Source of the DNA: a virus | Lineage: Duplodnaviria; Heunggongvirae; Uroviricota; Caudoviricetes | Direction: 5' to 3' (one strand) | DNA length: 5,936 bases | Virus record (IMG/VR): IMGVR_UViG_2695420485_000005 | Shown: positions 1-5,462 of the stretch, piece after piece | Layout: every line of letters starts with the position of its first letter | Numbering within the stretch: the stretch's first letter is position 1 | Position numbers and translations under genes: made by a program | The notes under the pieces: model-generated | Database searches by the model: none | Told to the model about the DNA's origin: nothing | The model's input: the letters and a program-made list of their open reading frames with translations, nothing else

Positions 1-34
1 CCTGGCACGGCTGGGACGGAAGTCGCTGTCGTTC

Positions 35-208
35 TCAAAATCGGTGGAGCTGCATGACAAAGTCATCGGGCATTATCTGAACATAAAACACTATCAATAA
101 GTTGGAGTCATTACCCACCCAGGCAAACTCTTTTAATTCATCGTCTTCTGTAAACTGGCTTTTGTCTTTTGACCACCAGTTTTCAAACTGTCGGTAGCTA
201 TCGTTCAC
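35..208 (-). CDS. Hypothetical small protein downstream of ren (about 57 aa from GTG at 206-208; the maximal ORF 35..223 would start at TTG)
   Basis: ORF track 35..223 (-). The first codon is TTG (rc of 221-223) and abuts the terminator T-tract, so I prefer the in-frame GTG (rc of 206-208), which has a G-rich Shine-Dalgarno-like stretch (GGGGGAG) about 6 nt upstream on the minus strand. I do not recognise the protein; coding status is uncertain. Confidence 0.3.
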
Positions 209-278: not shown

Positions 279-569
279 TCATCTTTTAACTCCATATACC
301 GCCAATACCCGTTTCATCGCTGCACTCTGGCGACACTCCTTAAAAATCAGGTTCGTGCTCACCTTTCCTTCCCGTTCTTCCCTGGTAGCAAACCGGTAAT
401 ACACCGTTCGCCAGACCTTACCTTCGATAACCAGAAGACCTGCCCGTGCCATTTTAGCCGCGGCCTGATTTATGCTGGTTACTGTTGCGCCTGTTAGCGC
501 GGCAACGTCCGGCGCACAGAAGCTATTATGCGTCCCCAGGTAATGAATAATTGCCTCTTTGCCCGTCAT
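279..569 (-). CDS. ren: Ren protein (lambda ren homolog, 96 aa)
   Basis: The 96-aa product MTGKEAIIHYLGTHNSFCAPDVAALTGATV... matches lambda Ren almost residue for residue as I recall it. Its start overlaps the P stop (ATGA overlap at 566-569), as in lambda. Confidence 0.85.
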   Translation of the reverse strand: MTGKEAIIHYLGTHNSFCAPDVAALTGATVTSINQAAAKMARAGLLVIEGKVWRTVYYRFATREEREGKVSTNLIFKECRQSAAMKRVLAVYGVKR

Positions 570-1267
570 ACACTTGCTCCTTTCAGTCCGAACTTAGCTT
601 TAATTTCTGCGATCTTCGCCAGCGCCTGAACATGATTTAGAGGTCTGCCGCCCATGACAGGAAGTTGTTTTACTGGTTCAGGGATCACCTCACCACGATT
701 AATTCTCGCAGTCATATGGACAAGCTCATCTGCGGCCTTGCGCCGTAATTCCGCGTCAGTCAGCGCATTGGCCCGCATGTTCTGGTACAGGTTGGTAACC
801 AGCCAGTAGTGCGCGTTTGATTTCCACGGATAAGACTCTGCATCCGGATACAGGCCACGCTTCCGGCAATACTCGTAAACCATATCAACCAGCTCGCTGA
901 CGTTTGGCAGTCCGGCGATAACGGATGCTTCTTCCCGGCACCATGCAACAAACTGCCCGGGTGATGGAAGAAATGGTCGATTCTGCCGACGGGCTACGCG
1001 CATTCCTGCGTTAACCTGTTCCATTGTGGTGATCCCGTTTTCCCGGAAAGCCAGAACCCACTGGCGGCGGATTTCGTTCAGTTCGTTCTGGTCACGGTTA
1101 GCCAGGCTCGCCGGGAAAGTTGCCAGTAACTGGCTGAACACACCGTTGATGATCTGCGCTACCTGCTGTACCTGCGGCTTTTCGTCGTACTGTTCCGGCA
1201 TGTTGTTGGCGATCCGACGCATCTGCTCACGGTCAAAATTAACCATCTGTGCGGCGATGTTTTTCAT
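566..1267 (-). CDS. P: Replication protein P (DnaB helicase loader), 233 aa
   Basis: The 233-aa product MKNIAAQMVNFDREQMRRIANNMPEQYDEKPQV... has the same length and near-identical sequence to lambda P from memory. Its start overlaps the O stop (ATGA at 1264-1267). Confidence 0.95.
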   Translation of the reverse strand: MKNIAAQMVNFDREQMRRIANNMPEQYDEKPQVQQVAQIINGVFSQLLATFPASLANRDQNELNEIRRQWVLAFRENGITTMEQVNAGMRVARRQNRPFLPSPGQFVAWCREEASVIAGLPNVSELVDMVYEYCRKRGLYPDAESYPWKSNAHYWLVTNLYQNMRANALTDAELRRKAADELVHMTARINRGEVIPEPVKQLPVMGGRPLNHVQALAKIAEIKAKFGLKGASV

Positions 1268-2202
1268 AAATCCACCCCGTAAATCCAGTCAGTGTTTGTC
1301 AGGTCGAGTTTTGGTTTTCCGGCTGTCACGCCTGCCTGTTGCTTGTTACGGTTGATTTCGAGTTGGGTCCACTTGTCGCGGAGTTTGGCCGGACTTAGCA
1401 CGTTACCGGACCAGAAGTTGTCCTGGCATGCCCAGCGGAACAGCACGCACATGTCGCGGTGGTTACGTCCGTCACGTTCACGCATCAGGCGGATATCGTT
1501 AGCCCACCCTGCAAAATTCGGTTTTCTGGCTGATGGTGCGATGGTCTTCACCATGTCAAACATCCACTCTGCGGCGGTCAGGTCTTCTGCTGTTCCCCAC
1601 TTGCTGCCGCTCTGAATTGCAGCATCCGGTTTAACCACAGAAAGATCGTTTTCTGGCTGGTCAGAGGATTCGCCAGAATTCTCGGACGAATAATCTTTTC
1701 TTTTTTCTTTTGTAATAGTGTCTTTTGTGTCCCCCTGTTTTGAGGGATAGCAATCCCCTAATTTGAGGGATGTTTTATCCCTCGTTTTAGGGGATTTTCC
1801 CTCGTTTTGAGGGATGTCCCTCATTTTAGGGGAACCTCCCTCGTTTTGAGGGATGCACCATTCTGAGATGTTTTTATTTGGTCCAAACATGCCGCCTTGC
1901 TGCTTGATAATATTCATTCTGACGAGTTCTAACTTGGCTTCATTGCACCGTTTGACAGGTAACTTTGTAATCTCGCTAAGTTGAGAATCGGTGATTCTGT
2001 CCATTGGTTTATTCCACCCATAGGTTTTACGCAGAATGGCAAGCAGCACTTTAAACTGTCGCTTGGTCAGATCTGCGCCTGAATAAGCCTCAATCAGCAT
2101 ATTTGATAGTCTGGCGTAACCATCATCGAGATCTGCCACATTACGCTCCTGTCCGGCAAAGTTACTTCTGCCGAAGTTGAGTATTTTTGCTGTATTTGTC
2201 AT
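1264..2202 (-). CDS. O: Replication initiator protein O, 312 aa (lambda O is 299 aa); contains the origin iterons
   Basis: Product MTNTAKILNFGR...DWIYGVDL matches lambda O from memory. It carries an in-frame 13-aa tandem duplication in the linker (IPQNEGGSPKMRD / IPQNEGKSPKTRD) that corresponds to extra iterons. The iteron array and AT-rich segment lie inside the ORF as in lambda. Confidence 0.95.
   Translation of the reverse strand: MTNTAKILNFGRSNFAGQERNVADLDDGYARLSNMLIEAYSGADLTKRQFKVLLAILRKTYGWNKPMDRITDSQLSEITKLPVKRCNEAKLELVRMNIIKQQGGMFGPNKNISEWCIPQNEGGSPKMRDIPQNEGKSPKTRDKTSLKLGDCYPSKQGDTKDTITKEKRKDYSSENSGESSDQPENDLSVVKPDAAIQSGSKWGTAEDLTAAEWMFDMVKTIAPSARKPNFAGWANDIRLMRERDGRNHRDMCVLFRWACQDNFWSGNVLSPAKLRDKWTQLEINRNKQQAGVTAGKPKLDLTNTDWIYGVDL
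1684..1730. other. AT-rich DNA-unwinding segment of the replication origin
   Basis: The tract TAATCTTTTCTTTTTTCTTTTGTAATAGTGTCTTTTGTGT lies immediately downstream of the iterons in the O reading direction, the same arrangement as ori-lambda. Confidence 0.7.
1731..1853. repeat. ori iterons: six tandem O-binding repeats (consensus on the O-sense strand TCCCTCAAAACGAGGGA)
   Basis: Six copies at about 20-bp spacing: 1731-1748 CCCCCTGTTTTGAGGGAT, 1754-1770 ATCCCCTAATTTGAGGGA, 1777-1794 TCCCTCGTTTTAGGGGAT, 1798-1815 TCCCTCGTTTTGAGGGAT, 1817-1833 TCCCTCATTTTAGGGGA, 1837-1853 TCCCTCGTTTTGAGGGA. Each is an internally palindromic 17-18mer. Lambda has four. Confidence 0.85.
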
Positions 2203-2211: not shown

Positions 2212-2291
2212 TGTTGATAGATCCAGTAATGACCTCAGAATTCCATCTTGATTTGTTCAGAACGCTCGGTCTTGCACACCGGGCGTTTTTT
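2212..2291 (+). ncRNA. oop: oop-like antisense RNA (about 80 nt) complementary to the 3' end of cII
   Basis: A candidate promoter sits upstream and a strong intrinsic terminator ends at 2291. The transcript would overlap the last ~57 nt of cII (2235-2291) in antisense. Size and position match lambda oop (77 nt). Confidence 0.55.
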
Positions 2292-2534
2292 ATTGGTGAG
2301 TTCATCAAGCGCATACTTAAAAGCCCTGCTAATCGGACTGATGTCTGATGCCATTCCGAAAGCACACAAGACCGAAGCAATAAATCTCCAGTCCGTTCTG
2401 CTTATCTTCGATTCATGACAGCCAATCATCTTTGCCAGACCGCGCTGGGTAAGCGTTGACAGGTTGATGAGTAAATCAGTTTCAGCGCGATCAATTTCTC
2501 GCTGTGATAGTTTGCTGTAACTTGTTTGTTCCAT
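2235..2534 (-). CDS. cII: cII transcriptional activator (99 aa)
   Basis: The C-terminus ...LTNKKRPVCKTERSEQIKMEF matches the lambda cII C-terminus (TNKKRP..TERSEQIQMEF) from memory, while the N-terminal two thirds diverge. Position between cro and O is canonical. Confidence 0.9.
   Translation of the reverse strand: MEQTSYSKLSQREIDRAETDLLINLSTLTQRGLAKMIGCHESKISRTDWRFIASVLCAFGMASDISPISRAFKYALDELTNKKRPVCKTERSEQIKMEF
2262..2291 (+). terminator. Rho-independent terminator (t_oop)
   Basis: Stem ACGCTCGG (2262-2269) / CCGGGCGT (2279-2286) with one mismatch and a 9-nt loop, followed by TTTTT(T)ATT on the plus strand. It lies inside the cII 3' coding region on the opposite strand. Confidence 0.7.
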
Positions 2535-2672: not shown

Positions 2673-2906
2673 TTATGCAGCCGATGCTCTACGCGATACG
2701 AACACTAGGTTTTCCTTTTTCACAGGTTTATAACCCGTGAAATTACGAGTAGCTTCTTCGATTGCATTCGCTTTATCAGGGGAAGCTCTTCGAAATCCAT
2801 ATGCAATCTGGTCAAGATAGCCAACTGAAGTTTTCGCTAATGCGGCGAGTCGCTTCCATTCCTCACTAGAAGCCTCTTTTCGCCAGCGTAGTAGTTCATT
2901 ACTCAT
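2673..2906 (-). CDS. cro: Cro-like HTH repressor (77 aa), non-lambda
   Basis: Small protein with a helix-turn-helix-like segment (TSVGYLDQIAYGF), first gene leftward of the operator region and divergent from cI. Good SD (GGAGG, rc of 2911-2915) 5 nt before the ATG. Confidence 0.75.
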   Translation of the reverse strand: MSNELLRWRKEASSEEWKRLAALAKTSVGYLDQIAYGFRRASPDKANAIEEATRNFTGYKPVKKENLVFVSRRASAA

Positions 2907-3019: not shown

Positions 3020-3724
3020 ATGGAAAACAAAGATATTCGCAAATCGAATCTGGCGTTTTTGCTAGATGAGCATAAAAAAATCGCGGGTAACACTAATGCA
3101 AGCTTTGCCGATAAGCTTGGGGTTAGCCCTTCTCAACTCACGCAAGTCTCCGGTGAAAAAAGCACTCGAAACATAGGGGATAAACTAGCAAGAAAATTTG
3201 AAGCCGCGCTTGGGTTACCTAATGGGTGGCTTGATTTGGTACATGATGTAACACCAATTGCATCATGCTCAGATTCTTTAACTTTTGTCGGTCAGGTAAG
3301 AAAAGGGTTAGTGCGCGTGGTTGGTGAGGCAATTCTTGGTGTTGATGGTGCCATCGAGATGACCGAAGAGCGCGATGGGTGGCTCAAAATTTATAGCGAT
3401 GATCCAGATGCCTTTGGTCTTCGTGTGAAAGGAGACAGCATGTGGCCCAGAATAAAATCAGGAGAATATGTACTCATTGAGCCTAACACCAAAGTATTCC
3501 CGGGTGATGAGGTGTTTGTCAGAACCGTTGAAGGACACAACATGATTAAGGTTCTTGGCTATGACAGAGATGGAGAATACCAATTTACAAGCATTAACCA
3601 GGATCACAGGCCTATAACGTTGCCTTATCATCAAGTAGCAAAGGTGGAGTATGTAGCTGGTATTCTGAAGCAATCTCGCCATCTGGATGACATCGAGGCA
3701 AGGGAGTGGCTGAAAAGTTCGTGA
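3020..3724 (+). CDS. cI: cI-type prophage repressor (234 aa): N-terminal HTH plus C-terminal LexA-like S24 autopeptidase domain
   Basis: N-terminus has an HTH-like segment (SFADKLGVSPSQLTQVSG). C-terminal domain has the Ser/Lys dyad context typical of LexA/cI (GDSMWP ... NMIKVL). Divergent from cro across the operators; SD AGAGGGA upstream. Confidence 0.9.
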   Translation: MENKDIRKSNLAFLLDEHKKIAGNTNASFADKLGVSPSQLTQVSGEKSTRNIGDKLARKFEAALGLPNGWLDLVHDVTPIASCSDSLTFVGQVRKGLVRVVGEAILGVDGAIEMTEERDGWLKIYSDDPDAFGLRVKGDSMWPRIKSGEYVLIEPNTKVFPGDEVFVRTVEGHNMIKVLGYDRDGEYQFTSINQDHRPITLPYHQVAKVEYVAGILKQSRHLDDIEAREWLKSS

Positions 3725-3784
3725 CTTCATCGTCACATAGCTGGTAACCAGTGGCCAGAAGAAACGTTTGGGTGAGGAGGATAG

Positions 3785-4126
3785 ATGGCGTTCACTGACC
3801 TTGAATATCAAGCGGTCAAAAAAGAAGTTCACCAATTCATTGAAAGCATAAGGCCGCCTGAACATATCCGCAATGAACTGGATATTGTTTATAGCATCAA
3901 TGACCAAACGATAGATATCGGCGAACAGCGCCCCGTGTGGCAGGGCAACCCAGGTGAAACAAACATCCTGCCATCAGCAAGAATCAAGTACATACGTTCT
4001 CTGGATAGATGGAAAATCTATTGGATGCGGAAGGATATGAAATGGCATCAGTACAGTACTGAACTTTCGCTGACTGATGCGCTTGAGCTTGTGCGTGCTG
4101 ACCCGGATTGCTGCTTCTTCGGATGA
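3785..4126 (+). CDS. Hypothetical protein (113 aa), first gene of the cargo cassette downstream of cI
   Basis: SD GAGGAGG (3774-3780) 4 nt upstream of the ATG. Same strand as cI, 60 bp after the cI stop. No motif I can assign; ends in ...DPDCCFFG. Confidence 0.6.
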   Translation: MAFTDLEYQAVKKEVHQFIESIRPPEHIRNELDIVYSINDQTIDIGEQRPVWQGNPGETNILPSARIKYIRSLDRWKIYWMRKDMKWHQYSTELSLTDALELVRADPDCCFFG

Positions 4127-4196
4127 GTGAAGAGACGTTTGGATGATGGATGATCGCAGAGATGCTCGTAGAGCATACAGCGATGCAGGAGAATTT

Positions 4197-4631
4197 ATGG
4201 CACTTAATTTAGAAAGAATATCTTTTATAACCCCATTTGATAGCAGCGAAGAACCCAACCAACCGACGCTTAATTTTACATGCAATGAATTTCCTGCGCG
4301 GCTATCAATTGATTTCAGGGTTGGTATGATCGGGTTGAAACCAAATTCAAGATATAATTTGGGTATTATGGTAATCCCCGCGCACCTAATTATAAAAAAA
4401 GGTGAGGAAATTCAATTCCCTGACGGCTCTTCGGAATCAGTTTCACTTTTCATCGATACGAAAGATAGCCATTTTGAAACAGGGGTTGGCGGACAGGTAA
4501 TAGTAACATTGAAAGAAATTAGGGTCCCAGCTAAAGGGCTGTATAGTGTTATAGGGATATTGCAAGATAATGAAGACCCTAAAAATGAACTTCATAAAAA
4601 TGAATCATTTTTCACCGTAGAGCTATTATGA
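4197..4631 (+). CDS. Hypothetical protein (145 aa from ATG 4197; maximal ORF from 4143 = 162 aa), AT-rich, translationally coupled to the downstream gene
   Basis: The in-frame ATG at 4197 has a good SD (AGGAG 4187-4191, 5-nt spacer), whereas the ATG at 4143 has none, so I prefer 4197. The stop overlaps the next start (ATGA at 4628-4631). The region is visibly AT-rich compared with the flanking phage genes. Confidence 0.55.
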   Translation: MALNLERISFITPFDSSEEPNQPTLNFTCNEFPARLSIDFRVGMIGLKPNSRYNLGIMVIPAHLIIKKGEEIQFPDGSSESVSLFIDTKDSHFETGVGGQVIVTLKEIRVPAKGLYSVIGILQDNEDPKNELHKNESFFTVELL

Positions 4632-5248
4632 GTGACGACAGTAATTTAAATAATCATGGAAAGCAAGACACCAACATATCTGAAAGCCGGAGGTTGAAGG
4701 TTGTTGGCGGTTCCGATTTTGAGGCTGAATTTGATAATTCTCCCACCAAGGTGCAAAATAATTACATAAAACCGCCACAAACGGAGGAAGAAGTGGGAAC
4801 GATCAGCAGAGAGGAACTTGATGCTCGCTTAGCTGCTAATAAAGCAGAGATGGAGTCTATTGCTTCTTCCATTAGGGCTGACATGGCTCTATCTCGTGAA
4901 AGCGTTAATGTCCAATTTGCATCACTTAATGCAGCCATAAGCTCTCTATCGTCCAAGATCGATGGAAAGATGGATAGCGCTGCTGGCGATATAAAAGCAA
5001 TTAATGGGAGATTCGAAGGAATTCAAGGACAAATAACAGGGGTTAATACCGCAATTAGTGGTGTTCAGTCGGGTATTTCTATACGATTAGCCATTTTTAG
5101 TGTCATTATCGCTGTAATAGTTGCGATTCCCGGGCTGGTATCAGCTTTAAAGTCAGACCACGTACCTTTGCAACAGCCTTCCACTTTGCAAGCGCCGCCA
5201 CAAAATACCCAGCCAACAGACAACAAAAAAATCACTCCCCAGCATTAA
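4628..5248 (+). CDS. Hypothetical tail-anchored membrane protein (206 aa): cytoplasmic coiled-coil/repeat region, single C-terminal TM helix, Pro/Gln-rich tail
   Basis: Hydrophobic stretch LAIFSVIIAVIVAIPGLVSAL near the C-terminus. The preceding region shows an ~11-residue periodicity (GDIKAINGRFE / GIQGQITGVNT / AISGVQSGISI). C-terminal tail is PLQQPSTLQAPPQNTQPTDNKKITPQH. No signal peptide. Confidence 0.6.
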   Translation: MSDDSNLNNHGKQDTNISESRRLKVVGGSDFEAEFDNSPTKVQNNYIKPPQTEEEVGTISREELDARLAANKAEMESIASSIRADMALSRESVNVQFASLNAAISSLSSKIDGKMDSAAGDIKAINGRFEGIQGQITGVNTAISGVQSGISIRLAIFSVIIAVIVAIPGLVSALKSDHVPLQQPSTLQAPPQNTQPTDNKKITPQH

Positions 5249-5256
5249 CGCATTAA

Positions 5257-5282
5257 CCCGGCCTCAGCGCCGGGTTTTCTTT
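5257..5282 (+). terminator. Rho-independent terminator ending the cI/cargo operon (tIMM-like)
   Basis: Stem CCCGGC (5257-5262) / GCCGGG (5269-5274), 6-nt loop, followed by TTTTCTTTG. It lies 9 nt after the stop of the 206-aa gene. Confidence 0.7.
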
Positions 5283-5462
5283 GCCTCACGATCCCCACAC
5301 CTAAAAACACATAACCAATTGTATTTGTTGAAAAATAAATAGATACAACTTGCTAAACAACGCAATCCAGATCTCCCTCAAATCTCTTTATTTATCCTGT
5401 CGAATTCCTACAACAAAATAAAACACCATAAGAATCAATACGATATTTGAAAACCAAGAGAA

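Follow-up and report, generated by a model that had tools for sequence, protein, structure and literature searches.

A repressor-linked DUF3024 gene in the lambdoid immunity region and its possible role as an accessory cassette of the lysogen

Introduction

What is the small gene that directly follows cI in a lambdoid immunity region, and does it belong with the repressor in front of it, with the genes behind it, or with neither? We address this question for a 113-residue reading frame (ORF113) in a 5,936-nucleotide stretch of the IMG/VR virus record IMGVR_UViG_2695420485_000005 (Caudoviricetes), referred to here as the window. An earlier note, made from the sequence alone, had suggested that ORF113 is expressed in the lysogen along with the repressor, either as a regulator or sensor for the two genes downstream or as an independent moron. 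The gene itself is already annotated (WP_000885926.1; L0084 of phage 933W), and its family is represented in Pfam, PHROGs and PADLOC. What is new here is the strict linkage of the family to repressors across many immunity types, the anatomy of the junction with its fossil cI ends and flanking repeats, the independence of ORF113 from the downstream pair, a subfamily of helix-turn-helix (HTH) fusions, and the identification of the Phi24B protein P3 as the ortholog of ORF113. As a type of element ORF113 is ordinary, a hotspot moron.

Layout and mosaic composition of the window

Gene layout and a Pfam scan identify the window as a lambdoid immunity region, with the following features.

279-569, minus strand: ren
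566-1267, minus strand: P
1264-2202, minus strand: O, with iterons
2235-2534, minus strand: cII
2673-2906, minus strand: cro
3020-3724, plus strand: cI repressor, 234 aa, HTH and S24 peptidase (Pfam Peptidase_S24, E 3.8e-16), H-19B/BP-4795 immunity type from DNA matches to H-19B and BP-4795
3785-4126, plus strand: ORF113, DUF3024 protein, 113 aa, 13.46 kDa, pI about 5.3, PHROG 3467 and PADLOC PDC-S43, ortholog of 933W L0084 and Phi24B P3
4197-4631, plus strand: first gene of an HK542/HK244-type pair, 144 aa, from the HK542 annotation and PHROG 5893, separate cargo
4628-5248, plus strand: second gene of the pair (ORF206), 206 aa, predicted coiled coil and C-terminal transmembrane segment, PHROG 5820, separate cargo
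5255-5286, plus strand: intrinsic terminator closing the cI-ORF113-pair unit, 8-bp stem with 6 GC pairs and a T-run, analogous to tM of 933W
5755 onward, plus strand: start of the N gene

ORF113 lies between cI and N, co-oriented with cI and with no terminator between the two; the first plus-strand terminator is the one at 5255-5276, and the layout of 933W is alike. The window is a mosaic, in which an H-19B-type cI is joined to a 933W-type ORF113 and an HK542 pair. The 3′ end of its cI is identical to that of 933W cI, and the C-terminal half is common to both, in agreement with the 100% identity described for this half of cI (Smith 2012). BP-4795 has the same cI type, other genes behind cI, and no DUF3024. 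The closest relatives of ORF113, L0084 of 933W and P3 of Phi24B, share with it 98% sequence identity, the same 60-nt junction and a cI with the same C-terminal half, and differ in what follows, L0084 being succeeded by L0083-stk-L0081 and ORF113 by the HK542-type pair.

At the left edge, window positions 1-115 are the terminal part of IS1 and match thousands of IS1 copies (with the annotation 'IS1-like element IS1A family transposase', and with a median of 10 matching places in each E. coli genome). From position 116 on the matches are to phage DNA again ('hypothetical protein', 'protein ren'), which places an IS1 insertion just downstream of ren in the window prophage. E. coli 2013C-3342 (NZ_CP027766) matches window positions 3600-4300 at 100%; it has no IS1 beside ren, so the window prophage is probably a closely related but different copy. 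In the N-gene region of NZ_CP027766 (8471-8539) the sole annotation is a short partial pseudogene ('regulator', 'missing N-terminus').

ORF113 is a genuine gene of the DUF3024 family

The reading frame proposed earlier is a genuine gene under selection, far beyond chance: it starts with ATG, runs from 3785 to 4126, matches DUF3024 over its full length, and shows dN/dS values of 0.04-0.16 against its homologs (Nei-Gojobori), indicative of purifying selection. The remote homology search suggested in the earlier note assigns ORF113 to Pfam DUF3024 (PF11225; E 2.4e-31, 108.7 bits against a cut-off of 24.9, residues 4-113 on profile positions 2-112 of 112), to PHROG 3467, a family of unknown function, and to PADLOC PDC-S43 (HMM PDLC05018; E 7.2e-42, residues 1-113 on profile positions 1-115 of 115), which PADLOC lists as a computational single-gene defence candidate. 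L0084 of 933W carries the annotation 'DUF3024 domain-containing protein'.

The C-terminus of ORF113, ...DPDCCFFG, had been singled out as unusual; it is present as described, and it is the signature of the family, whose members end in D-x-x-[GC]-C-F-[FW]-G. Across an alignment of 82 sequences F111 never varies, D106 and G113 each reach at least 90% conservation, and all of the signature residues (RPP..IR..LD, WK.YW.R.D.KWH.Y and the C-terminal D..[GC]CF[FW]G) occur in ORF113. Our literature search found no functional study of DUF3024 or PDC-S43, no match to the name 'DUF3024', and only unrelated catalogue numbers for 'L0084'. Scans of Pfam, PADLOC and NCBIfam returned no match to Rex families for ORF113 or for the downstream pair. 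Matches of ORF113 to AvrPto (E 0.07-0.16) and to a pentraxin (E 0.06) were treated as chance.

Remnants of cI on both sides of ORF113

The interval between cI and ORF113, and the sequence just past ORF113, contain the following elements.

3721-3736, plus strand: hairpin with a 5-bp stem and 6-nt loop (GTGAC 3721-3725, GTCAC 3732-3736), overlapping the cI stop
3727-3775, plus strand: fossil of a lambda-family cI 3′ end, from the spacer translation and alignment with intact lambda-type loci
3758-3775, plus strand: upstream copy of an 18-nt direct repeat, GAAGAAACGTTTGGGTGA, from a repeat search
3774-3780, plus strand: Shine-Dalgarno sequence GAGGAGG, read from the sequence
4129-4146, plus strand: downstream copy of the repeat, GAAGAGACGTTTGGATGA, reading EETFG and a stop, a second lambda-type cI-end fossil

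The spacer has the length given in the earlier note, exactly 60 nt from the cI stop (TGA, 3722-3724) to the ATG of ORF113, and the strong Shine-Dalgarno (SD) sequence noted there lies 4 nt before that ATG; an equally strong one, TAAGGAGG or AAGGAGG, stands ahead of every homolog inspected. The hairpin at the cI stop also exists, but it folds no better than shuffled sequence (z = +0.51, with 136 of 200 shuffles folding at least as well). We rejected it as a terminator or regulatory element, as its fold is at shuffle level and it has no T-run, draws no terminator call and is not conserved across junctions; it is common only to phages with a wholly identical cI 3′ end and is absent from SE1, lambda-type and other cI-DUF3024 junctions. 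A scan of the window against Rfam, spacer included, matched no RNA family.

The gap is not neutral sequence. Continued in frame past the cI stop, translation of these 60 nt gives LHRHIAGNQWPEETFG and a stop, which matches the lambda/HK542-type cI C-terminus, ...VIASQWPEETFG and a stop. Positions 3727-3747 read SSSHSW and a stop, matching one type of viral cI end (L100), and positions 3749-3775 read QWPEETFG and a stop, matching lambda and HK542 cI, with the fossil stop (TGA, 3773-3775) abutting the SD. In eight viral contigs (a cluster of seven represented by L099, and L154) an intact lambda-type cI ends in TGA-GGAGGATAG-ATG; here DUF3024 starts 9 nt after the repressor stop and the stop abuts the SD. 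Longer gaps of 37, 60 and 66 nt align to this 9-nt junction; in these loci the join to another repressor lies further upstream. The window spacer is therefore a fossil cI 3′ end of about 50 nt plus the 9-nt SD linker.

A pattern search for the 18-nt repeat gave 2 matches against 0.00 expected. Its downstream copy, the second cI-end fossil, lies 2 nt past the ORF113 stop, and homology to HK542 and CP53 begins at this copy (4129). The same flanking repeats occur in 933W, where they are 15 nt long and perfect, and a Kluyvera prophage has a different 21-nt repeat pair in the same geometry. E. coli CP53 represents a precise empty site, in which the same cI is followed by a single fossil copy and the downstream pair comes immediately after it.

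Past the second cI-end fossil, a conserved element GGTCGCAGAG(A/G)TGCGG follows in 933W (L001 3360-3385), in an Erwinia prophage (L007, about 6365-6390) and in Stx2 converting phage II (L090). The equivalent stretch in the window (4147-4176), HK542 and CP53 holds a perfect 6-bp hairpin, ATGCTC-GTA-GAGCAT (window 4162-4176). This post-fossil element might serve as a linker, be processed, or bind a protein.

The Sakai-type Stx2 phages (Stx2 converting phage II, L090 2469-2810; 51 phage records in this class, at 80-90% identity) have kept the ancestral lambda-type cI with the 9-nt junction, and their DUF3024 is an unannotated pseudogene with several frameshifts and stops. This decay and the recombination fossils on both flanks would be expected if ORF113 were a functionless reading frame, hitch-hiking or decaying in a recombination-prone junction. 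The strong purifying selection on ORF113 argues against such an origin, as do the intact gene in all of the 80 viral loci sampled, the 1314 family representatives at 50% identity in many phyla, and the detection of the ortholog protein, and we consider it highly improbable.

DUF3024 follows the repressor across immunity types

To describe the phage context of the family we used 80 IMG/VR contigs, taking as the upstream gene a co-oriented ORF ending within 200 nt and clustering proteins at 80% identity. The DUF3024 gene is intact in 80 of 80 contigs, and 77 of them have a qualifying upstream ORF, in 15 clusters. An S24 repressor stands directly upstream in 73 of the 80 loci and accounts for 13 of the 15 clusters, as judged by cluster representatives; the remaining two are represented by DinI and by DUF333. 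Behind DUF3024, the ORFs form 17 clusters, with 31 combinations of upstream and downstream cluster. ORF113 therefore essentially travels with cI and not with the downstream genes, the outcome that the earlier note had named as speaking against its proposal.

Diverged homologs occupy similar positions. A Morganella phage homolog with 33% identity lies 38 nt after its repressor, and in a lineage with 38-39% identity the 9-nt stop-SD-ATG junction is preserved behind a cI whose C-terminal domain is 64% identical to the lambda type and whose N-terminus is unrelated to it. In Kluyvera and Yersinia prophages, DUF3024 comes after short HTH-only repressors without S24 (127 aa and 137 aa, respectively).

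The constant feature in phages is 'repressor, then DUF3024', and the cargo behind it varies. Known or candidate defence genes are frequent among this cargo (Stk, PD-T4-6; an OLD/PtuA-like ATPase with a cytosine methylase; a PD-T4-9_C match). ParA-like, NYN and DUF6932 proteins and toxin-antitoxin (TA)-like genes also occur, and genes with a P63C domain follow DUF3024 twice. DUF6932 follows DUF3024 in two divergent viral contigs (L171 and L172, about 3360-3950). The C-terminal halves that heteroimmune cI genes have in common and the cI-end homology on both sides of the cassette indicate that repressors are swapped in front and cargo behind, with DUF3024 staying at the repressor 3′ end. Recombination at cI ends can thus mechanically explain part of the adjacency to repressors.

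In enterobacterial prophages without a repressor ahead of DUF3024, dinI is found nearby in three contexts. One is a Rahnella prophage, in which DUF3024 stands alone before a tail-fibre gene and near dinI. In Erwinia aphidicola (L007 5071-8130), DUF3024 is followed by an L0083-like gene (153 aa), a Stk kinase (348 aa) and a small ORF, in the order of 933W. The DUF3024-L0083-Stk-L0081 order is shared by Erwinia and 933W at 59% identity and in a different prophage location, lying in Erwinia at the prophage end, near dinI and tail genes. Diverged cI-end fossils flank DUF3024 on both sides there, and the four-gene block thus seems to have moved out of the immunity region.

The close association with repressors raises the possibility that DUF3024 is a repressor-linked modulator, which might bind, for example, the repressor C-terminal domain or, among host factors, RecA* and so tune the maintenance or induction of lysogeny, by a logic that may resemble that of 434 Hex, DinI or PsiB. 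Such a role would account for the position directly behind an S24 repressor in 73 of 80 loci and 13 repressor clusters, for the co-divergence of the cI C-terminal domain (64%) and DUF3024 (39%) in the lineage that keeps the 9-nt junction, and for dinI in the three contexts just mentioned. However, the same repressor types work without DUF3024 in BP-4795, CP53 and HK542, DUF3024 has decayed to a multi-frameshift pseudogene in the Sakai-type Stx2 phages, and it also stands behind the HTH-only repressors of Kluyvera and Yersinia, which lack S24. LexA boxes ahead of DUF3024 were found in 0 of 61 loci, and neither PsiB or DinI homology nor LexA-box control, as would be expected of a RecA/SOS modulator, was found. 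We consider a modulator possible, though on the present evidence rather unlikely.

ORF113 is independent of the downstream pair

In HK542, HK244 and E. coli CP53 the pair lies directly behind cI, which is of the lambda type in HK542 and HK244, and ORF113 is absent. Among complete E. coli genomes, the cI 3′ end joined to ORF113 occurs in 199 of 5426, compared with only 18 of 5426 for the junction of ORF113 with the pair, so the co-occurrence with the two downstream genes that the earlier note proposed to check across prophages does not hold. Because the HK542-type pair occurs without ORF113, and at least 17 other downstream gene clusters lie behind ORF113, the suggested role as a regulator or sensor for this pair finds no backing. 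The other suggestion, an independent moron, is supported, ORF113 being separable both from a given cI and from the pair.

In a broader form, ORF113 could be a regulator or sensor of the downstream two-gene module or a shared adaptor for whatever cargo follows. DUF3024 always precedes cargo, P63C-domain genes stand behind it twice, and the DUF3024-L0083-Stk-L0081 order is kept between 933W and the Erwinia prophage at 59% identity and in a different location. Nevertheless, the pair occurs without ORF113 and ORF113 without the pair in most loci, the cargos are unrelated to one another (kinase, ParA-like ATPase, OLD-like ATPase with methylase, NYN, DUF6932, TA-like), and DUF3024 stands alone before the Rahnella tail-fibre gene and in many phyla. 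In addition, stk alone reportedly suffices for HK97 exclusion, a result attributed to Friedman et al. in 2011, which counts against an adaptor. We regard this reading as very unlikely.

The listed 162-aa form of the first pair gene, from an ATG at 4143, begins inside the junction fossil. Its true start is likely the ATG at 4197, given AGGAG 6 nt upstream, the 144-aa annotation in HK542, and the PHROG 5893 profile, which begins at residue 21 of the 162-aa form. A hydrophobic stretch, AIFSVIIAVIVAIPGLVSAL, is visible in the translation of ORF206, and the protein weakly matches the NCBIfam models for MakE (E 0.006) and MakA (E 0.16), which are subunits of pore-forming cytotoxins. PADLOC gave no significant match for either pair protein. 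Located in the rexAB slot of HK542 and HK244, ORF144 and ORF206 might form a membrane-acting two-gene exclusion module.

Probable expression in the lysogen

The suggestion that ORF113 is expressed in the lysogen along with the repressor is supported by three observations: ORF113 and cI share a strand, no plus-strand terminator was found between cI and 5255, and the protein of the 98% identical ortholog has been detected in lysogens. No promoter of its own is apparent, the scanned region holding 5 promoter-like 9/12 sites against a shuffled expectation of 6.9, and the sole such site upstream of ORF113 lies inside cI (3603-3631). The 933W annotation places pM upstream of cI and tM after L0081.

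In stable Phi24B lysogens, 2D-PAGE and MALDI identified two proteins, P3 (13,472 Da, 'p24 of 933W') and P2 (17,096 Da, 'p23') (Riley 2012, PMC3342100). Their masses are the exact computed masses of 933W L0084 and L0083, and Phi24B P3 is the L0084 ortholog of ORF113. The P2 and P3 genes lie downstream of cI and showed a cI-like qPCR pattern, higher in the lysogen than after induction, with transcript levels reported far above those of cI; no promoters of their own were found, and the authors proposed pRM or pRE (PMC3342100). Two features of that data set count against expression in the lysogen, namely that the lysogen-restricted qPCR pattern was not statistically significant and that the MASCOT score of P3 was not flagged as significant (PMC3342100). 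Further down the same operon, stk is under pRM control (Smith et al. 2012), and the expression of cI, stk and ten genes of unknown function was unchanged on induction (Veses-Garcia et al. 2015).

Predicted structure

The structure search proposed in the earlier note yielded a predicted fold, an alpha-beta5-alpha sandwich, but no informative solved relative. AlphaFold2 with 28 homologs gave a model with pLDDT 87.9 and pTM 0.79, in which a helix (5-22) is followed by five strands (within 33-93) and a second helix (96-105), and the last three residues are disordered. We found no membrane segment and no recognisable catalytic motif in ORF113. The conserved residues are rich in arginine and tryptophan (R23-P24-P25, R29, D33, R49, W76, Y79, W80, R82, W87, D106, C110-F111-x-G113). 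The model supports a binding module.

The nearest folds to the model are alpha+beta sandwiches of the frataxin/CyaY, YkuJ/1ylx, CapZ and PsiB types. The weak likeness to PsiB is in favor of a modulator acting on RecA or the repressor, but PsiB is one of a generic cloud of similar folds, to which frataxin, CapZ and OspA also belong.

DUF3024 beyond phages

An exhaustive profile search returned 1314 DUF3024 representatives at 50% identity. Almost all of these are about 115 aa long and consist of DUF3024 on its own. They are carried by many phyla, including Gamma- and Betaproteobacteria, Desulfobacterota, Bacillota, Verrucomicrobiota, Nitrospirota, Bdellovibrionota and Spirochaetes. We sampled the neighbourhoods of 63 non-phage loci, using crude gene calls, and found no conserved partner gene, the 335 neighbours falling into 309 clusters, none of them recurrent. 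Pfam assigned 131 different families to 141 neighbours, a few TA genes (HicB, PIN, Fic) among them, and no HTH was found among the small ORFs adjacent to DUF3024. The conserved adjacent partner expected of a toxin-antitoxin or effector-immunity system is therefore lacking for DUF3024 in this sample. A minority of neighbours match defence models (DpdF, AbiEii, DRT, PsyrT and several PDCs).

One subfamily joins an N-terminal XRE HTH to DUF3024 in proteins of 251-290 aa (at least 20 clusters, 56-100% identity; P0055 and P0196-P0214). Its members (loci L092-L094) lie on metagenomic contigs, in islands with EcoRII-type restriction-modification, HsdM, MazEF and PIN genes, and in two loci the fusion precedes a 114-aa unknown protein, the same in both, and a DUF1801 protein. 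One further family member (P0142) is a DUF6933-DUF3024 fusion. For the modulator, these data cut both ways, since the XRE fusions place DUF3024 in the position that the S24 domain holds in cI, and yet no HTH, S24 or SOS gene is adjacent to DUF3024 in the 63 non-phage loci.

What ORF113 may do

The explanation that we favor, tentatively and at slightly less than an even chance, is that ORF113 is an autonomous, lysogen-expressed DUF3024 accessory cassette on the repressor 3′ end, most likely protecting the lysogen from other phages. It would be transcribed from pRM (and pRE) through cI, the transcript ending at the 5255 terminator, and its translation would start from the strong SD of ORF113 itself; where the ancestral 9-nt gap sets this SD against the cI stop, translational coupling would be possible. 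The product would be a small, soluble, acidic protein that binds another macromolecule, presumably through the conserved Arg/Trp-rich beta4-beta5 face and the flexible C-terminal CF[FW]G tail. That it acts alone and by binding is most likely, given that neither a catalytic motif, nor a membrane segment, nor a conserved partner gene was found. The cassette as a whole would move by recombination at the fossil cI ends.

Protection of the lysogen, as by other occupants of the cI-N hotspot, is the most likely role and the weakest step in this account. What points to it is that PADLOC lists the family as a candidate, that the surrounding cargo is rich in defence genes, and that BstA and RexAB set a precedent for this repressor-linked position. 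The classification of PDC-S43 as a single-gene system agrees with the absence of a conserved DUF3024 partner, and PDC-S43 has the status of a candidate label only. BstA (in BTP1 and other prophages) and lambda RexAB are lysogen-expressed, as ORF113 probably is, and like it they lie directly downstream of the repressor in the cI-N mosaic hotspot, presumably under a shared promoter. BstA homologs are 'strikingly' tied to repressor loci, as DUF3024 is, and about 21% of them are prophage-independent. In contrast to ORF113, a soluble single domain of 113 aa, BstA and RexAB are larger, act by abortive-infection mechanisms, and have no sequence or family relationship to it.

Several points weigh against a protective role. 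PDC-S43 is only a computational candidate; for a defence effector that works by itself, a cytoplasmic protein of 113 aa with no enzymatic activity would be unusual; and defence genes are only a minority of the non-phage neighbours. Moreover, DUF3024 is almost without exception the first gene after the repressor and has co-diverged with the lambda-family cI C-terminal domain at a fixed 9-nt junction, which could mean a functional tie to the repressor itself. In this respect 434 Hex offers a precedent for a modulator, as a small protein encoded with the repressor on the pRM transcript that modulates RecA-mediated repressor cleavage (PMC3564112). The likeness is one of description, and the Hex frame overlaps the cI coding region, unlike ORF113, which is a separate downstream cistron.

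A more specific idea along these lines, which we put forward as speculative and improbable, is that DUF3024, with its place 9 nt after lambda-family cI genes and its HTH fusions in one bacterial lineage, is a hitherto unrecognised small partner module of XRE/S24-type repressors, binding the repressor or its inactivating signal and thereby setting the threshold for induction or sensing superinfection.

Significance

Of 5426 complete E. coli genomes, 199 (about 4%) have ORF113, for the most part within 933W-type Stx-converting prophages. Few prophage proteins are made during dormancy, and the ortholog of ORF113 appears to be one of them. The fossil cI ends, in their layers, provide an unusually clear record of immunity modules being swapped before a fixed cassette. 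If the accessory cassette on the repressor 3′ end is a single-gene defence, it would be very small and would probably work by a new mechanism. Should DUF3024 modulate the repressor instead, this would bear on the induction of Shiga-toxin phages, and if it is a partner module of the repressor, it would be a third widespread component of the lambdoid cI/Cro switch, including that of the Shiga-toxin phage 933W.
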